Of a stretch of DNA of 64,000 nt, positions 546 to 60,000 are shown piece after piece. The stretch is from Pomacea canaliculata. Its lineage: Eukaryota. The stretch spans positions 8,572,345 through 8,636,344 of the forward strand of contig NC_037595.1 in the NCBI RefSeq assembly GCF_003073045.1. The letters are read 5' to 3'. The stretch's first letter is position 1, and each line of letters starts with the position of its first letter. The notes under the pieces are model-generated. The model ran no database searches. It was not told where the DNA came from and saw only the letters and a program-made list of their open reading frames with translations. A program made the translations under genes and the position numbers.

Positions 546-2923
546 GTCAGGGCTGTGATCCTGTTTCGCGGCCATACCTGAGATTGTCATTTTGATTTTT
601 GAAATTCATATACTACGGAGTGATTTTTAGGCCTTGGTGGTCCGCCATATTTTGTACTTAAGTAAAGTGGTCCGTGGTCCGAAATACTTTAGAACCATTG
701 GACTAGGCGTTGGACCGGTTTACTGTGCCTACCCGGACACGCAAACACGCAAAACACAAAACACGCAAAAAGACTTCTTACACTCCGTACCTGGTTGTGT
801 TGGTATCGATCAGTGAAGAAAGAATAGGTGAACAGCAACTAATTTATGTTATCCATACACGCATTCTGAAAACTTTCCTCACTCACTCTCTTTCGTTATT
901 CACGCTCTTTCATCTGTTTTTTTTTTAAATATCATTTTCTCGCTCTAGCTATAAACTTCATTTTTTTTAAATTATAAAATGCGAATGAAAAAAAATCCCC
1001 CCCCCCCAGGGTCCCATATATAATGCCTTATCCAACTTGGTTAAGTGGCGCGAACATCAAACAACTGCCACACACAAACTCATTACTAATTTCATTACTA
1101 ATAAAATGAAATATTAAGAAGGCTGCAAGAAATCTGCGTAACAGCATGTGAAGAAAGCCTAATGTCTGCACTGAGAGGACATTTTGTCCAAAACAACAGC
1201 AACCTTCTCATAACTCCAAGACACACTAACTGCATATACAGTAATCTAATGGCAACTGAAACCAATCCTACAGAAATAGTTCTGAGAGGAGATTCTCAGA
1301 TCTAGATTTTGAGAAGCCTTTCATGTATTTGTTAACTTGTGCTCTAATCCTTCTCTGATGAGCGTGGTATTCTGCATTGCATTTGGACATGGAATTAATA
1401 AATAAATATTATATTTACTTTAGAGTATATATATATATAAGTTAAATAAACGTTCTGTATTGTACGTACATATCGGTTCCCTGTGCGGGGATGTATCGTC
1501 GCTATCCGTCTGCAAATAATTTTAAAAAAGTCTTAATTAACGTGTCTAGGCATCCATATGAGTGTGGGTACATTAAATGAACTGAACCTGATCCTAAAGA
1601 AAAAATTTTGCACTTGGCTTGTACTTCAAACTGACCAGAAGCCAAGCTTTTTTTTATAAAAAATAAAGACATTATACATGTGCATATTTTAACCTACTAT
1701 TATAAGAACACCCATATAACACACCAATGATTTATGGAAGACAAGCAGAGTAGAAAATAAGACTACCAAATTAAAACTGTCACAAAGAAAGCAAAAAACA
1801 GAGATCCCTATCTCCACAGGCAGACAGTTGATGAGAGATTTCTTCAAATTAAAAAAGTATTAGATTTCATCCTTCTTTTGATTCTTTTTCCCCTCTTGGG
1901 GAGGGGAGGATCCCTACCCCCGGGAGATGGCTCATCTATGTTTATCTGCAAATAATTTAAAAAAGACTTAATTAATGTGTCTAGGAGGCGGGCGTGAATT
2001 CTCCTGCTCTGGTGACTGTAATGACTGCTCTTGGTAATTGTCTGCTGTTGTGAACGGAAGTGTTTCTCAACAGTATTTACACACAGGGTGTGTATTTTCG
2101 ATCAGTTCTAATTGCATGAAGTCCCTTTTGGGAATTATTGTTGTCCTCTGTTGACTGGAAGTGTTTTTGAACACTTCTTACGCATACAGCGTGTATTTCA
2201 AGCTCCAATTTCATGAGCTCCCTTTGTGGAAGCTTTTTAATTATGCTGGTTATCACCTGAAAAAACATTCATATAAAATGGCGATTCTTTTCGTCTTTTG
2301 AATACAAATTTAGGTACGTTCAAAATATATATATATACTGAATAAGAAAGCGATCCTGTTTCGCGGGCCTACCTCTAAATCTTACTGTAAGGATTTTTCT
2401 GGCGGCGCAGGTAGCTCTTCTCCTCCGGCCGAAGGAAGCTCTTCTCGTCCGGCCGAAGGTAGCCCTTCTCCTCCGCTATCACTTTGCCCGGCGGTTGCAG
2501 AACCACGTCGTTGTCGTTGTCGATATATGATTAACACTTATATTCCCAATTCCACAATCCTAAGGAATCAGCACCCTTCCATTTCAGATCTAGTTACATA
2601 CAAATATCATCATACACAGAAGGAGGTCAACAACACTGAAAGCATACGAAAACTTTTTTCAACTCTAGGAAAAAAAACAAACTATGTGTACCAAGCTACC
2701 TTCTAAATGGCATACAAAAGTAATGTCATACAGAGTTAACCTTTCCTATTGTAGAATCAAACTGCAATTTTTTTCAGCTGTTGTGCATTTTTAAATATCG
2801 TTGCATTTTCTTTTTATACCTTACAAGATTAATATTTTGTGATCCACTGTGTACATATTTCTTGCTTTGCTTCATTTAATAACATATCTATAATACCGAC
2901 AACTCTCGGAATTACATTTCCTC

Positions 2924-3257
2924 CTACCTCCTCGGCTTCTTTTCCTGTCTGCGCCTCCATGCTTTGCGGCGGTTTGCAAACCATCTCTGGAAGGAAGAAC
3001 CACAATGTTAATACGTGTCTCTGAAATCAGGGCTGTTTAGTTAACAACTAGTGGACTAGGCGTTGGACTGATTTACTGCGCCTTCCCGGACAGTGGTTTC
3101 TGGCAGTCCAGTCCTTCTTTCCAGCGCTTCGCGGTCAGCCACCCCGGGTAGCGATTTCTTCGGAATTCCCTTTCCAGGGTGCGCAGCTGGTCAGGCCGGA
3201 ATTGTATCCGTGGCCTTCGCACCCTCTGTGGCTGTACACGAGCGCTGTCGGTGGGTC
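2924..3257 (-). CDS. Type D paired-like homeobox gene (partial; no ATG in this exon). Exon 1 at 3082-3257, ~95-nt intron at 2987-3081 with a GC rather than GT donor, exon 2 at 2924-2986.
   Basis: Minus-strand translation gives '..PTDSARVQPQRVRRPRIQFRPDQLRTLEREFRRNRYPGWLTAKRWKEGLDCQKPLSGK' followed by 'RWFANRRKAWRRRQEKKPRR*'. These are the canonical PRD-like helix-1 motif 'QL..LE..F..NRYP' and the helix-3 motif 'WF.NRR.K.WR+R'. An acceptor 'gtgtgtcgcag|GACC' lies just upstream, so a 5' exon is expected. The helix 2-3 region is one residue longer than canonical. Confidence 0.55.
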
Positions 3258-5099
3258 CTGCGACACACGGGCAGACAAGGCGTCAGGATATGTGTAGATG
3301 AATAAGATGTAATAAGACGCCACTTAAAGAGGCTTGTTTATCCAATTTTTCTTTCTTGGGTCTCAGGAAGGGGAGATGAAGCTTTTTCGGCAGCTTGATA
3401 TTGAAGCACGGTTTGGTGGCATATTTGTTGTTCTGGCCTTAACGTCACAATTGTGAAGCTGTCCTGCCAGTCTCCACCCCCAAGTCCCTGACGCGCTTCT
3501 AGAGTTGGATAAATTTCTTGCGAGGACGCTAACATGTTTAGTTTGCTACTGTCATCTTGCACCAGTTGCATGTGATCACACCACGAACTCTACACACTTT
3601 CAGATTTTAGCGGTAAATCTTGGACAAGAATTACGAATGCTGAAAACATAGAAACAAATAGAAGAGTCAGATCTCTCAAGAAAAGCACTTACTAAACAAA
3701 AGATGATGAAACATTTATTGACAACTCACACTTATAGTCTTTAGGTAAAGAAACAATACAAATAAAACAGAAAAAATGCAAAATAAGTCAGGGAAGACGT
3801 TTACACAAAAGATGGTTATTGATGCACATGTTTAAGTACTCACGTGGTTCTGGTTCCGCCTGCTCTCGCCGGAAAAGCTAGGACATTTGAGCATGCGTAC
3901 GCGATCGAACCAGAGCTGTTGCTCCGGTCCAAATCGAACGGATTCTGAAATGATACAAGTAGTGTAACTCCATAACTTCATTTTTCTGTTGTCTCCTCAT
4001 ATTACGTTAGCTTTTCTAGTTTAAACAACTAAAAACACAAACAAACAAAATTATTACTTATGCTTAGAATATCATTTTAGGGACAATTAAATGTTAATTC
4101 TGTGACAAGTCCTTTTGAAAGGGAATAAATCGTATCTCCACACTGAAGTGAAGCATTCCGGTCCTCCCACTTATGTTCCGAATTCGAGTTAAAAACGATA
4201 ATTATTAATTCAAACTCTAAAGACTGAGGTTTTTTAAATCTATCGTCATAAGAGATATTAGCATATGAAAATGTAGTAAGGGTTCCACCGCAGTGAAATG
4301 TACTTTTACTCACATATTCAGAAATGGCATTTTTATCCTGGCTTCAATCTTTCCACTCTTCCAGCTACAAGGCTCTCTGGGCAATGTACAGTAATCGTTA
4401 TACTTCATTTTTACGTCATTCATACAGGCAGTGCAGTTTATTCGTAATTTGATTGCATTGACATATATCATATCAAGCGGCAGATGCATTTGACAATATT
4501 CTGGAACATTTTTTCCATACAACTAGTCCATATCTCTCTGACCTCAGACATACAGGTTTTCGAGAAACCTTAGCCAGATTTAGACGAATCTTGTGTCATA
4601 AATTTAGGTACTTTAAACAGCAGTTCTCTATGCAATTTGTTATATTACTGTGATGAGATCTACTGGGAACCAGCTGTACCTGTCTTCTGGGGAGGGGCCG
4701 TTGGCTCTCTCGGATGAGAAGCATTGAATTTCTTTAAAAACTCGTAGCATACATTATGTAGCTTCATGTGGATATCCAATAAAATCTCCTCAGGTAAAAC
4801 TTCAGTGATAGATCTAAGAAGTCTGAAGAAATGCCTGTTTTCTTTCTTTTTCTTTATCCAATTCCTCCCCCCTCCCTTGGGTAGGGAAAGACCACTCCCC
4901 CCTATCACAGGGGGTAATGTACATATTAGTGCACTCCCATCCATCCCTGTGTACAATATCTCCCACACACACGTGTTATCAATTTAATTAATTCACTGTC
5001 CTTAATAGTATCTTTACAAATCGAGCTAATCTGCTTTTCATAGCTTACAAGAGTGATGCAGCTCAATGTCTTTTTAGATTCCAATAACGCTTCGTTGCG

Positions 5100-5142
5100 A
5101 ACCAGCGCTGGAAAGGAAGAACCACAATGTTAATACGGTCTC
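5100..5142 (-). pseudogene. Degenerate homeobox exon-2 fragment ('RWFATKRYWNLKRH*') with a truncated intron element
   Basis: Minus strand shows 'ttcctttccag|CGCTGGTTCGCAACGAAGCGTTATTGG...TGA'. This is homologous to the type C exon 2. Homeodomain N51 is replaced by T/K. Confidence 0.4.
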
Positions 5143-5979
5143 CTTGTAGTGCTGTAATAATAACGTCGCAGCCGTTTTCGATATATGATTAACACATATA
5201 TTCCCAATTCCACAATCCTAAGGAATCACCACCCTTCCATTTCAGATATATTTACATACAAATATCATCATGCACAGAAGGAGGTCAACAACGCTGAAAG
5301 CATACGAAAACTTTTTTTGAACACTAGGAAAAAAAATTATGTGTACCAAGGTACCTTCTAAATGTTATACAAAAGTATGGAAGTCTGGAAGGTAGAACCA
5401 GAATATTAATACGTGTCTCTGAAGTCAGGGCTGTTTAATTAACAACTAGTGGTCTAGGCATTATAACTGTTTACTGTGCCTACCTCGACTTGTTTTTGAG
5501 ATAGTCGGGTTCTTCCTGCGAGGGTTTGTCTGCTTGATACTGGAGGAAATTTGCATTTTTTGAAGTAATCCTCCAATATCTTTTTTTGCCACCTCTTGAT
5601 ATTTCTTCGCCGGGGCCTCCGTCTGGCCGGTGGTTCTGTGATATGAAGGTGCAGCCAAGGCTTCAGGATGTTTGTAACGTTTTAGGAAGAGTGTGTTAAA
5701 TGTGTATGCGAGCGTGTGTGAACATCTACATGTCAACCACGCTCACCGCACTCTTTCACCTTTCACCTCTCGCGGACACATACACGCACACAGTTTTCTT
5801 ATTATTATGTCATTCATATAAAATGGCGATTCTTTTCGTCTTTTGAATACAAATTTACGTACATTCAAAAGAAAAAAAATATAGTGAATACGAAAGCGAT
5901 CCTGTTTCGCGTCCCTACCTGACAGAGTTATTTGGATCTTTTTGGCTTTTCCTCTTTTTTGAGGACGGGCGTCAGCAGC

Positions 5980-6030
5980 TGGCCTCTTCACTAACCGCAT
6001 TTTTCTGCGGCGGTTTGAGAACAACGTCTG
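5980..6030 (-). pseudogene. Degenerate homeobox exon-2 fragment ('TLFSNRRRKMRLVKRP..', W48L)
   Basis: Minus strand shows 'ccttccag|ACGTTGTTCTCAAACCGCCGCAGAAAAATGCGG'. A helix-3-like NRRRK motif is retained but the Trp is lost. Confidence 0.35.
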
Positions 6031-6159
6031 GAAGGTATAACCACAAAGTTAATACGTGTCTCTTTGAGTCATTCGCTTTTGTAAAATTCTTTGAGCTCGC
6101 TATCGTGTGAGAAAATACATTTGTAGTGCTATAATAATAATGATAAAAATAGTCGTCGT

Positions 6160-8640
6160 CGTCGCCGCCGCCGTTGTCGATATATGGCCTACCTCTCAAT
6201 CTTACTGTAAGGATTTTTCTGGCGGCGTAGGTAACCCTTCTCCGGCCGAAGGTAGCTCTTCTCCTCCGCCATCACTTTGCCCGGCGGTTGCAGAACCACG
6301 TCGTTGTCGTTGTCGATATATGATTAACACATATATTCCCAATTCCACAATCCTAAGGAATCACCACCCTTCCATTTCAGATATATTTACATACAAATAT
6401 CATCATGCACAGAAGGAGGTCAACAACGCTGAAAGCATACGAAAACTTTTTTTGAACTCTAGGAAAAAAAATTATGTGTACCAAGGTAACTTCTAAATGG
6501 CATACAAAAGTAATGTCATACAGAGTTAAGCTTTCCTATTGTAGAATCAAACTGCAATGTTTTTAAGCTGTTGTGCATTTTTAAATATTGTTACATTTTC
6601 TTTTTATACCTTACAAGATTAATATTTTGTGATCCACTCAGTACTTGTACATATTTCTTGCTTTGCTTAATTTAATAACATATCTATAATACCGACAACT
6701 CTCGGAATTACATTTCCTCTGACCTCATCGTCCTCGAGGTCATTCATTGTTGTCTGCACCGCCTTTGGGCCCTGCTGTTTCAAACCATCTTTCAATGTGA
6801 CGCCTGGACAGGCCTGTACGTCGTGCAAGTGTTGCTCTGGTTGAACGTCGGGGAAATTTCGTCTGCTAGAATTGGTCTTCCAAAATTCTCCTTTGCCATG
6901 GTTGTATTCTTCTTATTATTATTATTGATCTTCTTCCGGCTGGTGGTTCTGCGAAATGAAGGGCAGACAAGGCTTCAGGATGTGTGTGTCGATGAATAAG
7001 ATGTAATAAGACGCCACTTAAAGAGGCTTGTTTATCCAATTTTTCTTTCTTGGGTCTCCAGGAAGGGGAGATGAAGCTTTTTCGGCAGCTTGATATTGAA
7101 GGACGGTTTGCTGGCATATTTTATGTACTTGCAGATGGAGATCTTGAAGAATCTCCACTGGAAGTGTTGAAGTCAGACTTTAGCGGTAAATCTTGGACAA
7201 GAATTACGAATGCTGAAAACATAGAAACAAACAAAAGAGTCAGATCTCTCAAGAAAAGCACTTACAAAACAAAAGATGATGAAACATTTATTGACAACTC
7301 ACACTTATAGTCTTTAGGTCAAGAAACAATACAAATAAAACAGAAAAAATGGAAAAATAAGTAAGGGAATACGTTTACACAAAAGATGGTGATTGATGCA
7401 CACAACTCGATCACTCACTCCAGAGCCTGTTAAAGTACTCACGTGTTTCTGGATGGGCCAATGGCTGAAGTAGTAGTATTTTTAAGCAGAGTAACGCTTC
7501 ACTGTCTCATAGACGCTAAAAATTAGCTAAAATATTAGCTGAGACAGAATTGCACACTAAATTGTGACGAAACGAGGCGGTGTAATTCAAACTCTGAAGA
7601 CTGATGTTTTTTAAATCTATCGTCATAAGAGATATTAGCATATGAACATGTAGTAGGAGTTCGCTCTCACTTTCCACTTACGCCGCAGTGAAATGTACTT
7701 TTACTCACGAATTATTATTTGGTATTGCTGTGGGAGCTTTTTCGGCCTGCCTGCCTGCCTCCAGATATCGTCCTCACGGTACCTCGCTCTTTGTTACGTC
7801 ATTCATACACGCATTCTGAAAACGTTGGTCACTTACACTCTTCCGTCATTCACGCTCTTTCATCCTTGCACGCGCGCTCATTCCTTCCACGATATAAAAA
7901 TGTTAGAGGGCATTTTATTCGTAATTTGATTGCATTGACATATATCATATCAAGCGGCAGATGTATTTGACAATATTCTGGAACATTTTTTCCATACAAC
8001 TAGTCCATATCTCTCTGACCTCAGACATACAGGTTTTCGAGAAACCTTAGCCAGATTTAGACGAATCTTGTGTCATAAATTTAGGTACTTTAAACAGCAG
8101 TTCTCTATGCAATTTGTTATATTACTGTGATGAGATCTACTGGGAACCAGCTGTACCTGTCTTCTTGGGAGGGGCCGTTGGCTCTCTCGGATGAGAAGCA
8201 TTGAATTTCTTTAAAAACTCGTAGCATACATTATGTAGCTTCATGTGGATATCCAATAAAATCTCCTCAGGTAAAAACTTCAGTGATAGATCTAAGAAGT
8301 CTGAAGAAATGCCTGTTTTCTTTCTTTTTCTTATCCAATTCCTCCCCCTCCCTTGGGTAGGGAAGACCACTCCCCCTATCACAGGGGGTAATGTACATAT
8401 TAGTGCACTCCCATCCATCCCTGTGTACAATATCTCCCACACACACGTGTTATCAATTTAATTAATTCACTGTCCTTAGTAGTATCTTTATAAATCGAGC
8501 TAATCTGCTTTTCATAGCTTACAAGAGTGATGCAGCTCAATGTCCTTTTCGTTCCCAATAGCGCCTGGTTGAGAACCAGCGCTGGAAAAGAAGAACCACA
8601 ATGTTAAAATACGTGTCTCTGAAGTCAAGACTGTTTAGTT
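6160..8640. repeat. Copy 2 of the ~3.6 kb tandem segmental duplication
   Basis: Same blocks as copy 1. Copy 2 carries the intronless homeobox version (see 6795-6960). Confidence 0.75.
6795..6960 (-). pseudogene. Intronless, frame-disrupted paralogue of the type D/B homeobox (degenerate homeodomain)
   Basis: The minus strand reads '..IQPWQRRILEDQF*' and then, in a shifted frame, 'RRNFPDVQPEQHLHDVQACPGVTLKDGLKQQGPK', continuing straight into the exon-2 homologue (AGATGGTTTG...). The ~95-bp intron present in the paralogue at 2987-3081 is absent here. The WF/N51 positions are degenerate. Confidence 0.5.
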
Positions 8641-9248
8641 AACTAGTGGACTAGACACCGGACCTGTTTACCAGGGTTGTCCCTGGGACATATTTTTCTA
8701 TCCCATCCCATCCCATGGCAATTTATGCCTGTCCCATCCCATCCCATCCCATGGGACGTTTCCCATAGTAATAACATTCATATGGACAACACTGCGCATT
8801 GCACACATGTTAACAAAGTCATGGCATAATGAAACTGGAATAAAAAAAGTATTTTTCCTGTGCTTAAAAAGTCTGACAATGCAAATTTCAGCGTAAATTT
8901 ATTTTACAATATCAAGTATCGACTACCATGGGAAATACAAATGTGTGCTGTCCCATCTCATCCCATCCCATGGGACGTTTCCCATGGGATTCCCATGGGA
9001 TTCCCATTCCTATGGACAACACTGCTGTTTACTGTGCCTACCTTTATCCATGGTTGGGTTAGCTTCGTTCTTGTAGACAATAATCTCAGGTCACTGGAAG
9101 TGACGTAGTTACGCTTCTCAAAACTTTTTTCTAGCATCAACTTTTTCCAATCTTTCGGGTTTTTTCTCCTGTGTCGCTGAGGTGTAGGCTGCTGCTGAGG
9201 CTGCTGCTGCTGAGGCTGAGGCTGCTGAGGCTGATTCTCAGGCTGATT
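8537..9248 (-). CDS. Type C divergent homeobox gene. Exon 1 at 9042-9248 is Q-rich; 460-nt intron with an ATCCC pentamer microsatellite; exon 2 at 8537-8581.
   Basis: Acceptor 'tttttctcag|AATCAGCC'. Exon 1 reads 'NQPENQPQQPQPQQQQPQQQPTPQRHRRKNPKDWKKLMLEKSFEKRNYVTSSDLRLLSTRTKLTQPWIK' and ends at donor AAG|GTAGGC. Exon 2 reads 'RWFSTRRYWERKGH*'. Homeodomain positions L16, F20, Y25, L40, I45, W48, F49 and R53 are kept, but position 50 is S and position 51 is T (normally N). Confidence 0.45.
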
Positions 9249-9576: not shown

Positions 9577-10070
9577 CTACTTTGGGAATTCTGATCCGTA
9601 TAGGAGGGTGCTGATGACAGTTGACTGGAAGATTCTCAGCTTGATCTTCTTACTGATGTTTGTTGCCTTCCATGTGCTCCTGAGTGAGGCACGTCTGTTG
9701 GCGAACCACCTCTGGAAAGGAAGAACCAAAATGTTAAAACGTGTCTCTGAAGTCAAGACTGTTTAGTTAACAACTAGGACTAGACACTGAACCTGTTTAC
9801 TGTACCTACCCTAATAAAATCTTTTTCAAATGAGTGTTTCGTGATAGGTCTGCGAGGACTTTTGGTGTTACATACTGATTTTTCTTAAATTCTTTCTTCA
9901 GCCATCGTCGAAGAGTTCGTCTTGGTTGTCGTCTTTGCGGTCTGTTCTGTTGTGGTCTAATTAATTGTCGCTGCTGTCTCTCTATTTCTGGCTGTTGATG
10001 CTGGTGTCCAACAAGCCACCTCACGCCTGCTCTTAATGCGTCGTACAATGCCCGAAGGCAAAATTTCATC
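9577..10070 (-). pseudogene. Type A homeobox copy, frameshifted. Exon 2 at 9577-9711, intron, exon 1 at 9806-10070.
   Basis: Exon 1 reads 'MKFCLRALYDALRAGVRWLVGHQHQQPEIERQQRQLIRPQQNRPQRRQPRRTLRRWLKKEFKKNQYVTPKVLADLSRNTHLKKILLG*'. Relative to the intact copies it has a 3-residue deletion in helix 1 and a 1-nt deletion that places a TAG at the donor. Confidence 0.6.
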
Positions 10071-10595: not shown

Positions 10596-10872
10596 TAAAT
10601 AATAATGTGTTGCTAAGACTACTCTACATAATCGGGCATTGTCTGTTCACACGTACAACCATCTCCTCGAGATAAAAATGTGCGTTTTACACAGCCTGTC
10701 CAACAATCTGTTTCATGCAGCAGTAAAGGCCCTTTTTTTTCACACCTGCCTAGTCACAGAGGCTCTGACACTTTAGCCGTGCCGGTTTATAATCTTCTCT
10801 TTTTGCTGTTGGTCACGTGCCGGTTTATATTCTTCTCTTTTTGCTGTTGGTCACGGTGCCTTGCTTCGTATG

Positions 10873-11366
10873 CTACTTTGGGAATTCTGATCCGTAAAGG
10901 AGGGTGCTGATGACAGTTGACTGGAAGATTCTCAGCTTGATCTTCTTACTGATGTTTGTTGCCTTCCATGTGCTCCTGAGTGAGGCACGTCTGTTGGCGA
11001 ACCACCTCTGGAAAGGAAGAACCAAAATGTTAAAACGTGTCTCTGAAGTCAAGACTGTTTAGTTAACAACTAGGACTAGACACTGAACCTGTTTACTGTA
11101 CCTACCCTAATAAAATCTTTTTCAAATGAGTGTTTCGTGATAGGTCTGCGAGGACTTTTGGTGTTACATAGTGATTTTTCTTAAATTCTTTCTTCAGCCA
11201 TCGTCGAAGAGTTCGTCTTGGTTGTCGTCTTTGCGGTCTGTTCTGTTGTGGTCTAATTAATTGTCGCTGCTGTCTCTCTATTTCTGGCTGTTGATGCTGG
11301 TGTCCAACAAGCCACCTCACGCCTGCTTTTAATGTGTCGTACACTGCCCGAAGGCAAAATTCCATC
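10873..11366 (-). pseudogene. Type A homeobox copy carrying the same frameshift and deletion as the 9577-10070 copy
   Basis: Exon 1 at 11102-11366 reads 'MEFCLRAVYDTLKAGVRWLVGHQHQQ...HLKKILLG*'. Exon 2 at 10873-11007. The two copies share their lesions. Confidence 0.6.
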
Positions 11367-11903: not shown

Positions 11904-12396
11904 CTAGTGTTGGCGCCTACGAATTGCGGCACGCCTGTTGGTAAACCATGTCTGGAAAGGAAGAACCAAAATGTTAACACGTGTCTCTCAAGTCAAGACT
12001 GTTTAGTTAACAACTAGGACTAGACACCGAGCCTGTTTACTGTGCTTACCCTTATCCATATATAACTCAGATGGGTATGTCTTGAAATAGTGGCGACGAC
12101 TTCTGCAGTCGCATATTGATTTATATTAAATTGATCTTTGAGGATGGTTGACTGCCATGGTTTAAGTATTTGTCTTCTAGGCTGTTGTCTTCTTCTTTGA
12201 TTACGTATTCTGGGTTGTTGATTTCTTCGTCGTCTTTGTCTTAGATTTAAGATGTTCTAAGTCTTCTTTGTCTTTGTTCCTGTCTCCTTTCTCGTCTAAT
12301 TATTTGTTGATTGGCTGGCTGTTGTTGGCGATGCCAATGACGTATTGAATTCCGGCTTTGACAGCTTGGAAAGCAGCTCTGAGGATGTATTCCATA
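11904..12396 (-). pseudogene. Type B homeobox copy with a frameshift in exon 1
   Basis: This is 95%+ identical to the intact type B gene at 14213-14710, but has a 3-nt deletion (cttcttcttc becomes cttcttc) and a 1-nt deletion (atgcccaatgacg becomes atgccaatgacg). No ORF of 60 aa or more is called here. Confidence 0.6.
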
Positions 12397-13198
12397 CTGA
12401 AATGATAAAGCAGAATGAGTGGAGTCAGTGAGCTGGTGTACGGAAAATTTAGTTTTTACACGTTTATTTTGTGTAATTCTTCAATGGGTTAACTCGTACA
12501 AATTAAAAAAAATGTTCAAAATCAAAAAAATCAAATCAAAACAAACTTTATGTCTGTCGAGGATACCCAGGACAGAAATTTGTCTTCGCTCACAAGGGCA
12601 GCATACATATACAGACATTTAAGACACAGCAGTAAAACTAGAAGTGCATCTACTTACCTCTAGTTAACTAAGTAACTAAACACAGTAAACACACTACACC
12701 TTAAAAAAGATAAAATGTAGAAAATACATTTTCTACATCACCCCTTCCTCCGGGGGAAAAATTGTGCCTGCTAAGGCACAATTTTTTCGAAAATACAAAT
12801 CCATCGATAGCCAAAACGATTAGTACACATGCCCAAATGTATAGCACAGCCAAAAATCAAAATATAACAACTAATCATCATAAAGCATAGTCACCACAAA
12901 CAATTCACCTCAAAAAAAAAATAAATAATAATGTGTTGCTAAGACTACTCTACATAATCGGGCATTGTCTGTTCACACGTACAACCATCTCCTCGAGATA
13001 AAAATGTGCGTTTTACACAGCCTGTCCAACAATCTGTTTCATGCAGCAGTAAAGGCCCTTTTTTTTCACACCTGCCTAGTCACAGAGGCTCTGACACTTT
13101 AGCCGTGCCGGTTTATAATCTTCTCTTTTTGCTGTTGGTCACGTGCCGGTTTATATTCTTCTCTTTTTGCTGTTGGTCACGGTGCCTTGCTTCGTATG

Positions 13199-13714
13199 CT
13201 ACTTTGGGAATTCTGATCCGTATAGGAGGGTGCTGATGACAGTTGACTGGAAGATTCTCAGCTTGATCTTCTTACTGATGTTTGTTGCCTTCCATGTGCT
13301 CCTGAGTGAGGCACGTCTGTTGGCGAACCACCTCTGGAAAGGAAGAACCAAAATGTTAAAACGTGTCTCTGAAGTCAAGACTGTTTAGTTAACAACTAGG
13401 ACTAGACACTGAACCTGTTTACTGTGCTTACCTTAATAAAATCTTTCTTGAGGTGAGTTTCTTGAGATAGGTCTGCGAGGACTTCTGATGTTACGTACTC
13501 GGACTTCTTAAACTCTCTCTTCAGCATTTTCTTTTGCCATCGTCCAAGAGTTCGTCTTGGTTGTCGTCTTTGTTGTCTTTGCGGTCTGTTCTGTTGTGGT
13601 CTAATTAATTGTCGCTGCTGTCTCTCTATTTCTGGCTGTTGATGCTGGTGTCCAACAAGCCATCTGACGCCTGCTCTTAATGCGTCGTAAACCGCCCGAA
13701 GGGAAAATTCCATC
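13199..13714 (-). CDS. Type A PRD-like homeobox gene, intact. Exon 1 at 13432-13714 with ATG at 13713, 98-nt intron, exon 2 at 13199-13333. ~138 aa.
   Basis: Exon 1 reads 'MEFSLRAVYDALRAGVRWLVGHQHQQPEIERQQRQLIRPQQNRPQRQQRRQPRRTLGRWQKKMLKREFKKSEYVTSEVLADLSQETHLKKDFIK'. Donor is AAG|GTAAGC, acceptor is ttcctttccag|AGGTGG. Exon 2 reads 'RWFANRRASLRSTWKATNISKKIKLRIFQSTVISTLLYGSEFPK*'. The homeodomain is a perfect 60 residues with R5, L16, F20, Y25, L40, I45, W48, F49, N51 and R53, and the intron sits exactly between residues 46 and 47. An acceptor lies immediately 5' of the ATG (tttatcatttcag|G ATG), suggesting a non-coding 5' exon. Confidence 0.7.
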
Positions 13715-14212: not shown

Positions 14213-14710
14213 CTAGTGTTGGCGCCTACGAATTGCGGCACGCCTGTTGGTAAACCATGTCTGGAAAGGAAGAACCAAAATGTTAACACGTGTCTCTCAA
14301 GTCAAGACTGTTTAGTTAACAACTAGGACTAGACACCGAGCCTGTTTACTGTGCTTACCCTTATCCATATATAACTCAGATGGGTATGTCTTGAAATAGT
14401 GGCGACGACTTCTGCAGTCGCATATTGATTTATATTAAATTGATCTTTGAGGATGGTTGACTGCCATGGTTTAAGTATTTGTCTTCTAGGCTGTTGTCTT
14501 CTTCTTCTTTGATTACGTATTCTGGGTTGTTGATTTCTTCGTCGTCTTTGTCTTAGATTTAAGATGTTCCTAAGTCTTCTTTGTCTTTGTTCCTGTCTCC
14601 TTTCTCGTCTAATTATTTGTTGATTGGCTGGCTGTTGTTGGCGATGCCCAATGACGTATTGAATTCCGGCTTTGACAGCTTGGAAAGCAGCTCTGAGGAT
14701 GTATTCCATA
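14213..14710 (-). CDS. Type B PRD-like homeobox gene, intact. Exon 1 at 14359-14710, intron, exon 2 at 14213-14260. ~132 aa.
   Basis: Exon 1 reads 'MEYILRAAFQAVKAGIQYVIGHRQQQ...QPRRQILKPWQSTILKDQFNINQYATAEVVATISRHTHLSYIWIR'. Exon 2 reads 'TWFTNRRAAIRRRQH*'. The homeodomain is 60 residues and aligns with the canonical homeodomain without gaps (F20, N23, Y25, T27, L40, I45, W48, F49, N51, R52, R53). Position 50 is T. The intron is at 46/47. Confidence 0.75.
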
Positions 14711-15487
14711 CTGAAATGATAAAGCAGAATGAGTGAGTCAGTGAGCTGGTGTACGGAAAATTTTAGTTTTTACACGTTTATTTTGTGTAATTCTTCAATG
14801 GGTTAGACTCGTACAAATTAAAAAAAAATGTTCAAAATCAAAAAAATCAAATCAAAACAAACTTTATTGTCTGTCGAGGATACCCAGGACAGAAATTTGT
14901 CTTCGCTCACAAGGGCAGGCATACATATACAGACATTTAAGACACAGCAGTAAAAACTAGAAGTGCATCTACTTACCTCTAGTTAACTAAGTAACTAAAC
15001 ACAGTAAAACACACTACACCTTAAAAAAAGATAAAATGTAGAAAATACATTTTCTACATCACCCCTTCCTCCGGGGGAAAAATTGTGCCTGCTAAGGCAC
15101 AATTTTTTCGAAATACAAATCCATCCGATAGCCAAAACGATTAGTACACATGCCCAAATGTATAGCACAGCCAAAAATCAAAATATAACAACTAATCATC
15201 AATAAAGCATAGTCACCACAAACCAATTCACCTCAAAAAAAAAAAAAAATAATAATAATGTGTTGCTAAGACTACTCTACATAATCGGGCATTGTCTGTT
15301 CACACGTACAACCATCTCCTCGAGATAAAAATGTGCGTTTTACACAGCCTGTCCAACAATCTGTTTCATGCAGCAGTAAAGGCCCTTTTTTTTCACACCT
15401 GCCTAGTCACTGAGGCTCTGACACTTCAGCCGTGCCGGTTTATATTCTTCTCTTTTTGCTGTTGGTCACGGTGCCTTGCTTCGTATG

Positions 15488-15994
15488 CTACTTTGGGAAT
15501 TCTGATCCGTAAAGGAGGGTGCTGATGACAGTTGACTGGAAGATTCTCAGCTTGATCTTCTTACTGATGTTTGTTGCCTTCCATGTGCTCCTGAGTGAGG
15601 CACGTCTGTTGGCGAACCACCTCTGGAAAGGAAGAACCAAAATGTTAAAACGTGTCTCTGAAGTCAAGACTGTTTAGTTAACAACTAGGACTAGACACTG
15701 AACCTGTTTACTGTGCCTACCTTCATAAAAACTTTCTTCAAACGAGTGTTTCGTGATAGGTCTGCGAGGACTTCTGATGTTACGTACTGGGACTTCTTAA
15801 ACTCTCTCTTCAACATTTTCTTTTGCCATCGTCGAAGAGTTCGTCTTGGTTGTCGTCTTTGCGGTCTGTTCTGTTGTGGTCTAATTAATTGTCGCTGCTG
15901 TCTCTCTATTTCTGACTGTTGATAACGGTGTCCTAGAAGCCACCTGACGCCTGCTCTTAATGCGTCGTACACTGCCCGAAGGCAAAATTCCATC
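15488..15994 (-). CDS. Type A PRD-like homeobox gene, second intact copy. Exon 1 at 15721-15994, exon 2 at 15488-15622.
   Basis: Exon 1 reads 'MEFCLRAVYDALRAGVRWLLGHRYQQSEIERQQRQLIRPQQNRPQRRQPRRTLRRWQKKMLKREFKKSQYVTSEVLADLSRNTRLKKVFMK'. Donor is AAG|GTAGGC. Exon 2 is identical to the 13199 copy (RWFANRRASLRS...LLYGSEFPK*). Confidence 0.7.
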
Positions 15995-57096: not shown

Positions 57097-60000
57097 TCAT
57101 TTTGCTATACCCAGCTTGGCTTGCAGGAACTTAGATGATATCTTGTTGGCATTCTTTTTGAGATATGCGTCACCCTGATGCTTCTGCCAGTCTTCTTCAA
57201 ATTCATTCTCAAGGATCTCTGCCCCCTTTTTACGAGTTAGACCCGTCTCCTCCAAACTTAGTTCACACATATTGATGTCATCTGCTCCTGCAAAGTGGGT
57301 GGAAGAGAGATGTCAAAGAGTCTTGAAAGATTATTGTCAGCACTGTATGTAGTGCAAACAACTAAGGCTATATAATGGCGAGAACAGAAAGACGAGTAAA
57401 AAGACTTTAGGACAGCCACCATACATCAAATTGTGCATTGAACTGTTTCCGCATTTTTCTTGTCCCATGTAAATCCCTTGTGCAGCTTACTCAGTACAAG
57501 AACTTCTGTAAGCCAGCGTCACATTCATAAGAATCAGGTCTGATTAACTTTCTCTTCTGGAACATGAACAAAATTATTCTGCATGAATTAAAACATGTAT
57601 ACACACACTTACCTGCAACAAACAAGATGGGTGGTTTATCAGGGTAAAGCTCCATCTGGCGAGCAATCCAGGTTCCATCAAAGTGTGCATACCACATTCC
57701 ATGCTTGTTGTTGTCACGGAACTCATCAGATGGCCGCGCAAAGGGAATTTTGAAATAGCGCTGTACAGCATTTTTATCCTGAGTGGGCACTTTTTGCTCA
57801 GGATGAGCAGCGAATGCTTTTTCAGCTGCAATAAAACAAGCTTGGAAAATAATTAGTGTAAAATAGCATTTCAATGGTTGCTTTAGAAGTGCTTATACCT
57901 AAAGATGATTTCACACTAAGAGTACAGGTGGGGGGAGAAATGGAGTACCTGGAAAAAACCCCTGATAACAAACCTTGTAAACCTCACAGAATGTCCCAAG
58001 GCTAGATCTGAACCCAGGATCTCTCTATGCAGTGGTGACAAGCAAGTGTTTTAACTATGATACTGCTAAGTGCCCCTATAAAATAATATTCCTATATATA
58101 TATAAAAGAACAGTTTATATTTACACTAAAATGAAAAAAAGGCAAAACAAACAAAAACATCTAATGTATATTAACACAGATGTTGCTGAAACAGAAGAAC
58201 AACAGTAGGTACATACCAGCATCCTCTACAGCTTTTGGTGCTCGATGCTCGCCCTTATCAGTACGTTTTTTGTTCTTGGACTTCCATGCGTGGTATACTT
58301 TTAGACGACGATGGAACTCCTCACGGCAGGCATCCAACAGTTCCAGATCTGCAAGGGATGGCAGGACATTCTTTTATTAGACTGTGGTACATGCTCAACT
58401 ACTTGAAGTGTATAGGCTTTAGGGCATTAAGGAGCAGTTTTGTGATCTGCGTTCTCGCTGTTTTGAGAGATATCAGATTTCCTTCGAGATTTTATCTAAC
58501 ATACATATATGACAAATATATATATTTTAATAGAAAATCTTAAAATTTGTTTAAAAATACTACAGTCAGCACATAACAGTGACCTTCTGCAATGGATAAC
58601 ATTTCTAAAAATGTAACCCATTCCTGATGCTAACAAGCCAAATTTTTTCAGTATTCAAAGTCGAATAACTAGTGTCAGACTGGAATAGCAATATTCTTGA
58701 TGCATTAGGCACTTTGTTGTTGGTCATACAAGGGTATAAAAAGGGATGATTACAGTGTCTGAGGTCACTAGGGGGGTTCAGAAATAAAAATAGAAAGTGA
58801 AGTAAACAGATTATTATCATGCTTGTTTATGTCTGTTAATTAACCATATCAGTTTAATATTAAAACATGTAATTAATGGAAAAAAAAACCCAAACAAACC
58901 AGTGCCATCGTTATGCACTGCAAAATAAACTGGAATTGCTAGCTTACCACAAGATGTATTAATGGCATCACGAAGTTCAGCATACTTCCATTTGCTCAAG
59001 TCATACTTCTTGTTAGCTGCCTTCTGCTGGAATGCACGAACTGCCTCCGATCTAATGAAAGAATTGGTCATTTCTAGTTTTACACACACTTCTAAAAAAC
59101 ACTACCGCCAACAACATCAGTATCATTGGATGCGTACAGATATAAAAGATGACATTTCTACAAAGTAAGAATTCTCTCATTTTCTAGCTACTTATGTGCC
59201 TCAGTCAACTTAATTAACTCTTTTAACCAGTCTCCTTTATTTATTATTTATTCAAAATAGTTTTAAGTTTAACATTTTTAAAGAATTTCTTGAATTCTGA
59301 GGAAAACCTCTCAATAGATTTAGATCCTATTCTGAGGTACACTCTGCTGAAGTATCAAAAGAGAATATAACAGAGCGAACATAAAGCATCAGTAAATAGG
59401 AACATTAGCTCCAGCACTTTTAATACAGTGACAGAACAAACCTGGGTAATGGGGGAGGAAGAACAATGTCTTCCACCTGATTCTGGTCCTCCATGGCCAG
59501 TCTCAAGGCCAGCTCCCGATCCCTGTGTTCTTGATCCAGCTGAGCCTGTCTGTAATTTCACACACAAATAAACACATCACCAAGTCATTTAAATAACACC
59601 AATAATCGTCCACTAAACTAGCAAGATTCTCAGCTACATCAACAACTCAATGTAACAATATCTGACCTTTCAGCTTGTTCCTTTGCCTGTTTTGAAAGTT
59701 CAGCTTTCATTGCTTCCTGAAAAAGTACAAGCACAAGTCCAATGAATGTCTGTGAATGCAACTGTACAATAAGAATGCCACATTCTCAGAAATCTACATG
59801 GGACTTTAATGCTAACACAGCATTTTACATAAGTTCTGACAAAGGTAGCTCAGTAGATACATATAAATGATATTAACAGACTTGAATAATATCAGACTTT
59901 ATCCACAAGCAATTTTTATGACATATTCAAGACAGACACCCAGGTCTGCTTTCCTCCAAAATAAACTAGCCACTCACAGCTGCTTTTCGATCTTCCTCCT

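Follow-up and report, generated by a model that had tools for sequence, protein, structure and literature searches.

A tandem array of homeobox genes lies within a 64,000-nt stretch of Pomacea canaliculata DNA (NCBI RefSeq assembly GCF_003073045.1, contig NC_037595.1, positions 8,572,345 to 8,636,344 of the forward strand), referred to below as the window, and one of its members has precisely lost an intron that its relatives retain. The window has a G+C content of 32 to 42%; tRNA genes are absent, and exons are short and separated by GT-AG introns. Searches with tblastn and self-BLAST located at least 10 homeobox copies at 0.7 to 16 kb, all on the minus strand. Copies A, C, B, and D come first and are followed by type 1 copies (E, F, H, and J) alternating with type 2 copies (G and I). 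The array also holds three truncated pieces (685-739, 5063-5142, and 5919-6063), while the seven complete copies, D to J, are found at 8.5 to 16 kb.

The Pfam homeodomain profile PF00046 was matched above its gathering score in copies A, B, C, D, I, and J, and exon 1 of copy C encodes an intact homeodomain (HD) from residue 1 to 46 (E = 3.6e-9). A phase 0 intron separates HD codons 46 and 47 in copies A, C, D, E, F, G, H, I, and J, with only B lacking it. The same Pfam search found no paired domain in the spliced products of I and J, which contained the homeodomain only (plus DUF6451 in J). Residue 50 of the HD, typically Q, K, or S in the PRD class, was A in copies A, H, and J, T in copy G, and S in copy D. 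The array appears to be a lineage-specific and apparently unannotated PRD-like expansion, where the class is assigned from the homeodomain, the intron site, and the missing paired domain rather than from a class phylogeny. Word-indexed protein searches returned no relatives, only a P. canaliculata retroelement-like protein and myosin VI fragments. An exhaustive HMMER search with exon 1 of copy I against 1.84 billion representatives gave a single match, to a 1,577-aa protein (E = 2.7e-10), for which the aligned stretch was unreported; this match was set aside.

Two peculiarities of the encoded proteins were observed. Exon 2 of E, F, H, and J encodes a C-terminal tail (…SLRSTWKATNISKKIKLRIFQSTVISTLLYGSE…; 9577-9680, 10873-10975, 13199-13300, and 15488-15590, minus strand) that matched DUF6451 in Pfam, was 85% identical to a P. 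canaliculata hypothetical protein, and is an exonized retrotransposon fragment. In copy D (8581-8537) and its truncated twin D' (5107-5063), T replaces the near-invariant N at HD position 51 (RWFSTRR and RWFATKR, respectively), and for this reason the D/D' homeodomain may be degenerate for DNA binding, though the frame of copy D is open.

The intron difference was examined between copies A and B, which occupy matching places in a tandem duplication. Copy A encodes HD residues 1 to 46 from 3257-3086 and residue 47 onward from 2986-2928 (RWFANRRKAWRRRQ), and with its frameshift repaired it matched PF00046 across profile positions 1 to 57 (E = 3.8e-17). Its intron has an intact acceptor (ttccag/AGATGG) and a donor that reads GA (3085-3084) where GT is expected. 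The original prediction had put this intron at 2987-3081; its presence held, and its limits are corrected to 3085-2987, a length of 99 nt. In copy B, by comparison, profile positions 6 to 49 were matched unbroken (E = 2e-9) across the 46/47 boundary. The junction reads CAC ATT GAA/AGA TGG TTT at 6791/6790 and is exact and in frame, with no extra bases. Local alignment of three intron copies against 7000-6680 found no residual intron, with a best score of 8 compared with a mean of ~10 for shuffled sequence and 72 for the positive control. The ends of the fused exon keep the acceptor (ttcgcag/) and a donor-like GAG/GTCAGA. The proposal that A carries the intron and B lacks it was thus borne out by translation, by Pfam, by reading of the junction, and by the lack of any intron remnant.

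The flanks of the two copies are collinear, as had also been claimed. The region 3' of A (2366-2934) aligned with 6186-6730 beside B at 88.9% identity, and the upstream intron or flank of A (3254-3437) aligned with 6945-7132 at 91.0%, with 98 to 100% in the distal part. Two further blocks followed in the same order, 3600-3828 against 7173-7402 (95.7%) and 4430-5142 against 7907-8619 (96.8%). The duplication unit is ~3.5 kb, and collinearity reaches the exon borders, so that the aligned A and B regions show neither a remnant of the intron in B nor a nonequivalent position. No poly(A) and no target-site duplication (TSD) were found at B, and its flanks are the paralogues' own noncoding DNA on both sides of the fused exon. 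A processed retrocopy was considered and rejected on these grounds, in agreement with the earlier view that B is not a dispersed retrocopy.

The description of A and B as paralogues stands for their positions and fails in so far as it implies simple twins: their exons are near saturation while the flanks are ~90% identical, and both copies are disabled. Copy A carries a 1-nt frameshift in a C3G4 run (3142-3147) in addition to the GT>GA donor. In copy B, HD codon 21 has become TAG (6868-6866), and codon 50 has lost 1 nt (~6781), which turns WFxNSR into WFETAG. To judge from these changes, both look like pseudogenes. Elsewhere in the array, C lacks exon 2, its intron acceptor abutting flank sequence directly, and E, F, and G are frameshifted, while the frames of H, I, and J are open. 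Coordinates of all copies and fragments are collected in Table 1.

Table 1. Homeobox copies, fragments, and duplicated units in the window (position 1 is the first nucleotide of the window; CDS, coding sequence; ORF, open reading frame)
Feature	Positions	Strand	Details
Copy A exon 1	3086-3257	minus	HD codons 1-46 and 5' extension; preceded by acceptor tcgcag
Copy A intron	2987-3085	minus	99 nt, phase 0, between HD codons 46 and 47; aligned with 7 other intron copies
Copy A exon 2	2928-2986	minus	RWFANRRKAWRRRQEKKPRR; HD position 47 onward; then GAG/GTAGGA, in-frame TAG at 2926-2924
Copy B fused exon	6724-6948	minus	Exon 1 plus exon 2, junction 6791/6790; from translation, Pfam, and codon register
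Copy C	5385-5639	minus	Exon 1 5639-5484; complete intron 5483-5385; exon 2 deleted
Copy D	8537-9248	minus	Exon 1 ~9248-9042; intron 9041-8582 (460 nt); exon 2 CDS 8581-8537
Copy E, type 1	9577-10069	minus	Exon 1 10069-9810; intron 9809-9712; exon 2 CDS 9711-9577; frameshifted
Copy F, type 1	10873-11365	minus	Intron 11105-11008; frameshifted
Copy G, type 2	11904-12395	minus	Intron 12049-11952; frame broken by indels
Copy H, type 1	13199-13713	minus	ORF intact; intron 13431-13334
Copy I, type 2	14213-14709	minus	ORF intact (132 aa when spliced); intron 14358-14261
Copy J, type 1	15488-15993	minus	ORF intact; intron 15720-15623; exon 2 tail retrotransposon derived (DUF6451)
Fragment, intron 5' half	685-739	minus	With ~8 nt of an A-like exon 1 end (GTCCGG/GTAGGC)
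Fragment D'	5063-5142	minus	Last 35 nt of intron (5108-5142) and exon 2 CDS (RWFATKRYWNLKRH, then stop); twin of copy D exon 2
Fragment K	5919-6063	minus	Last 35 nt of intron (6063-6029) and exon-2-like piece 6028-5919 (TLFSNRRRKMR...)
Tandem unit 1 and partner unit 2	2266-5142 and 5811-8619		Mosaic of 92-100% identical and unalignable blocks

Two further observations concern the reading frames. Copies G (11904-12770) and I (14213-15080) had no mismatches over ~850 nt and 21 gap columns, and 1-nt indels break the frame of G. These indels are either very recent mutations or homopolymer assembly errors, and the frameshifts in A, E, and F should be read with equal care. In all copies, a second GT lies in frame 9 nt into the intron, inside an invariant CAGTAAA (e.g., 15720-15704, GTAGGCACAGTAAACAG). 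In copy A it could act as a cryptic donor, which would add three residues between HD positions 46 and 47.

The intron forms a family confined to the array. Its 39-nt core occurred nine times in the window (0 expected), each time within a minus-strand homeobox copy, with no occurrence in the other 48 kb and no match in JGI metagenome contigs, a collection without animal genomes. Homologous intron sequence was present in nine complete and three partial copies and in both unit types, with a mean column identity of 93% among eight copies and pairwise identities of 80 to 96%. Its borders form no terminal inverted repeat (TIR; length, 0), and no direct repeat there exceeds 4 nt. A phase 0 intron between HD codons 46 and 47 is the canonical PRD-like site (PMC6258689, PMC2938728), and the cnidarian genes otp, rx, and hbn have it as well (PMC2938728). 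By homeodomain protein distance, B pairs with C (49% amino acid identity over HD residues 1 to 46; neighbor-joining bootstrap, 72%). In the 215-bp flank shared by the three copies, nine informative sites grouped B with C, seven grouped A with B, and one grouped A with C.

Loss of the intron by B, for which one event suffices, is thus well supported as the polarity of the change by the sequence comparison, given the canonical site, the 12 homologous intron copies, and the nesting of B among intron-bearing copies. Gain would demand that one sequence had inserted again and again at a single codon boundary. Together with the exact in-frame excision, this upholds the proposed precise loss in situ.

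The accompanying suggestion of a recently gained or mobile intron element was not sustained, the intron being restricted to one homeobox site and one strand, without TIRs or TSDs, and with copies that differ by up to 20%. Nor are the stretches taken for isolated intron fragments isolated; they are parts of further gene copies. The piece at 5395-5470 belongs to the complete intron of copy C (5483-5385), behind an intact exon 1. That at 6031-6062 is the 3' part of an intron (6029-6063) joined to an exon-2-like piece (6028-5919), and that at 640-730 is an intron 5' part with ~8 nt of the end of exon 1 (685-739).

A genuine transposon was seen inside the intron of copy D, as a 353-bp insertion resembling a miniature inverted-repeat transposable element (8672-9024). 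It has 11-nt TIRs (CAGTGTTGTCC and CAGGGTTGTCC, 10 of 11 positions complementary), an 8-bp TSD (GTAAACAG, at 9032-9025 and 8671-8664) that is hAT-like, and an internal repeat (8729-8795 against 8948-9025). As this element possesses both TIRs and a TSD and the array intron has neither, a mobile intron is unsupported.

What occurred in B is a codon-exact loss with the DNA on both sides left in place. Current models of intron loss comprise recombination with spliced cDNA, genomic deletion, and end-joining repair (PMC3652778). We lean, by a modest degree, toward a cDNA route from a resident or paralogous transcript. On this reading, the region is the decayed end of a minus-strand tandem array of PRD-like genes whose ancestral structure has a short (98- to 99-nt) phase 0 intron at 46/47. 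A spliced, probably 5'-truncated cDNA of B or of a paralogue would then have recombined with the chromosomal copy, and a short conversion tract spanning only the junction of exons 1 and 2 would have erased the intron and spared the one upstream. With TAG now in helix 1 and a frameshift in helix 3, B appears to be a pseudogene, and the event would have no present function.

Several features favor a cDNA route, among them the exactness of the excision at both borders and the scant microhomology (1 to 2 nt) between them. In the intact copies the stop codon lies within exon 2, so that the lost intron was probably the 3'-most one, though A and B keep a donor-like GAG/GT after exon 2. Loss of the 3'-most intron with retention of an upstream one is what the reverse transcriptase (RT) model predicts for 5'-truncated cDNAs (PMC3652778). 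The first ~20 nt of the fused exon resemble the start of exon 1 of C, and its exon 2 portion is 70.7% identical to A over the 42-nt HD part. With both ends homologous in situ, the deletion appears to be internal to a resident copy. Finally, the DUF6451 retroelement tail of E, F, H, and J suggests past retroelement activity in this genome.

Other points weigh against the cDNA route. No donor and no conversion-tract signature were found in the window, the B exon scoring at background in local alignments with the other copies. The array is rich in DNA-level rearrangements (C, D', and K are truncated), which raises the prior for a genomic deletion. Adjacent introns were not lost together, the upstream one being kept (6949-7132, collinear with that of A), though joint loss is a tendency of the model and not a requirement. 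The germline expression that the RT model requires is hypothetical here, and the exon or intron status of the flanks is predicted from genomic sequence. Outside yeast, moreover, the model is a matter of dispute (PMC3652778).

An exact deletion at the DNA level, through end joining, replication slippage, or an AG-AG crossover, whether fortuitous or favored because it left the frame open, is unlikely. It draws on the many truncations of the array, several of them within the intron in question (D' at 5142, K at 6063, the piece at 685-739, and the lost exon 2 of C), and nonhomologous end joining is among the mechanisms put forward for the precise loss of introns (PMC3652778). However, both breakpoints must hit splice junctions, and the other junctions in the array fall at arbitrary intron or exon positions; as a rule, deletions in genomic DNA would not be exact (PMC3652778). 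Microhomology at the intron borders, from the splice-site AG, was found in every intron-bearing copy but amounts to only 1 to 2 nt, and it is zero at GAA/AGA in B itself. It would therefore offer little help to an end-joining deletion that needs exactness at both ends.

It is doubtful that the coding core of B was imported through gene conversion at the DNA level, with the donor an already intronless copy in another part of the genome (for example, a dispersed processed retrocopy of a diverged paralogue). It has the appeal that one event would account for both the missing intron and the divergence of the B exon from A and C: B exons are 38 to 53% identical to A and C at the nucleotide level against 89 to 96% for the flanks, with the switch at or near the exon borders, and mammalian PRD-like arrays convert often and spawn many retrocopies (PMC8208926). 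The same discordance between exons and flanks is seen, however, in the intron-bearing pairs A-C, G-H, D-D', and F-H, so a cDNA-derived donor is unneeded to explain it, and the window holds no such donor.

There is very little to recommend an assembly artifact, with the junction or the frameshifts arising from cDNA contamination or collapsed paralogues. Some 1-nt indels may well be sequencing errors, as G and I differ by indels only and the frameshift of A lies in the C3G4 run, but the B junction sits inside unique, collinear genomic flanks, the B exon is unlike any copy in the window and so cannot be made by local collapse or chimerism, and the TAG of B and the GT>GA of A are substitutions rather than indels. 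Least credible, and within the window effectively refuted, is gain of a ~98-nt introner-like mobile element with B in the ancestral intron-free state: the intron is strikingly alike (80 to 96%) among otherwise very different copies, but its nine full and three partial copies share the HD position and phase of an ancient PRD-like site, are absent from the other 48 kb and from the JGI contigs (which lack animal genomes), bear no TIR or TSD, differ by up to 20% and hence are not recent, and surround B with intron-bearing relatives.

The wider array shows a second pattern, in which exons have diverged and introns and flanks have not. Plain alignment of the A and B cores (MAFFT and Needleman-Wunsch) was uninformative because the exons are too diverged, and comparison in codon register was used instead. 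In this register, A and B were 38% identical at the nucleotide level in the HD part of exon 1 and 45% over 60 codons, against ~90% in the flanks; B and C were 53% identical in the HD part of exon 1. Third codon positions among A, B, and C were near random, and synonymous divergence (dS) was not computable. Identity drops at, or within a few base pairs of, the exon borders. Between G and H, 370 bp upstream was 95 to 100% identical up to the acceptor 1 nt before the ATG, exon 1 fell to 30 to 57% (35% at third positions), the intron rose again to 95 to 96%, and exon 2 was again low. The exon 2 CDS of D and its twin in D' (within the blocks 8581-7907 and 5107-4430) differed at 8 of 45 positions, compared with 6 of 629 in the adjoining noncoding DNA (Fisher P = 5e-7). 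Exon 1 of F and that of H were 9.0% apart, compared with 0.5% for the upstream DNA and 2% for the intron.

For the young pair H-J, nonsynonymous divergence (dN) in exon 1 was 0.071 and dS was 0.158 (omega, ~0.45), with dS 18-fold above the 0.9% divergence of the intron and exon 2. The omega value and the raised dS led to the rejection, for this pair, of positive selection as the only driver of exon divergence. Exon 1 thus looks older than its surroundings rather than positively selected, which points to mosaic gene conversion. Conversion of this kind probably accounts for the young pairs, and it is documented in mammalian PRD-like arrays (PMC8208926).

The intron poses a separate question. Together with 15 nt of exon 2, it was the only DNA alignable by BLASTN between A/B/C-type and E-J-type units, at 82 to 83% identity (2972-3087 against 9697-9811, 10993-11107, 13319-13433, and 15608-15722). 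Alignability of the intron alone across unit types is hard for conversion to explain and suggests purifying selection or another constraint on the intron itself. An Rfam search of the intron gave only a subthreshold chance match (E = 0.4), RNAalifold predicted a weak structure (-11 kcal/mol) that lacks compensatory pairs and is disrupted at several pairs in A and C, and no C/D box or mirtron-like hairpin was evident in it. An RNA function for the conserved intron was accordingly rejected as unsupported by Rfam and RNAalifold. The intron might be a constrained functional element that carries all the splicing information for hypervariable exons, with its loss going along with the death of B. This is more probable than a renewal of the exons through RNA, in which spliced (error-prone or paralogue-derived) cDNAs would repeatedly overwrite the exons, accounting for their excess divergence over intron and flanks, and B would be the footprint of a tract that crossed the junction, an idea to which we give little credence.

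Among known systems, DUX4 in the D4Z4 repeat offers a PRD-like homeobox that lacks homeobox introns inside a tandem repeat, and it is considered a retrogene, fully processed at first and amplified afterward. Copy B differs in that it lacks one intron only, is single, and keeps the flanking noncoding DNA of its paralogues. With mRNA-mediated intron loss (Fink model; Zhu and Niu 2013, PMC3652778), B shares the precision of the loss, the kept context, and, probably, an intron lost from the 3' side. It departs from that model in having no loss of the adjacent intron and no donor or processed pseudogene identified, and the recipient is a pseudogene in a tandem array.

The eutherian ETCHbox genes (LEUTX, TPRX, ARGFX, DPRX, and Obox; PMC8208926, PMC6258689, PMC4904359) have a PRD-like homeodomain and a phase 0 46/47 intron in common with the array. 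Both also have an intron just 5' of the homeobox, lineage-specific tandem arrays, fast divergence, many pseudogenes, and mosaic histories. However, the families are unrelated; HD residue 50 is K or Q in ETCHbox rather than A, T, or S, and the retrocopies of ETCHbox genes are fully processed and lie dispersed, in contrast to the in situ absence of one intron in the array. Homeobox genes described as new in lophotrochozoans (Paps et al. 2015, PMC5322547) are likewise lineage-restricted and divergent PRD-class or TALE-class "cryptic paralogues" in molluscs. The array differs from these in lacking established orthology to the named oyster groups, and the oyster genes were not described as a conserved-intron array with saturated exons.

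Introns or untranslated regions that are better conserved than coding sequence have been found in snake venom phospholipase A2 genes (PLA2), three-finger toxins (ASSET exon-segment switching), and Conus conotoxins (PMC7285919, PMC3862624). These venom families are also tandem, with substitutions over all three codon positions, and the conotoxins provide a gastropod precedent (PMC7285919, PMC3862624). They encode secreted toxins with dN/dS of ≥1, in contrast to the present array, where the ratio was ~0.45 for H-J, older pairs were saturated, and several copies are pseudogenes.

Taken alone, the intron loss adds one ordinary case to a known phenomenon, in a pseudogene and with an inferred mechanism. 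It is a useful case in that intron-bearing and intronless copies stand side by side with alignable flanks, so that polarity and precision are unambiguous. Of greater value is the wider locus, with the conserved-intron, diverged-exon architecture of its homeobox array. If this pattern reflects intron constraint or exon-directed diversification or conversion, it would bear on how transcription factor families diverge after tandem duplication and would broaden a pattern linked until now to venom genes.

Minor repeats were also found in the array. Degenerate exon-2-like remnants (…TWFCNRRAK-stop-stop-RRR…) lie at 2467-2520 and 6239-6313 on the minus strand, preceded by (ACG)n and with no intron there; a 24-bp tandem repeat (2.8 copies, 2409-2475) adjoins one of them. 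A subrepeat that includes exon-2-like remnants recurs at 423-545, 2518-2640, 5180-5298, and 6311-6433. In units F and H, a 38-bp tandem repeat (2.2 copies, 95% matches) follows exon 2 on its 3' side (10778-10860 and 13104-13186). A Pfam scan of 20 other ORFs at 16 to 64 kb detected no reverse transcriptase ORF and only a myosin VI cargo-binding exon, at 57491-57874 on the minus strand (PF16521, E = 1.3e-20). The homeobox array is thus neighbored by a conserved single-copy gene, which could anchor synteny; the best database relatives of this exon were unnamed ENA proteins with 79 to 86% identity.

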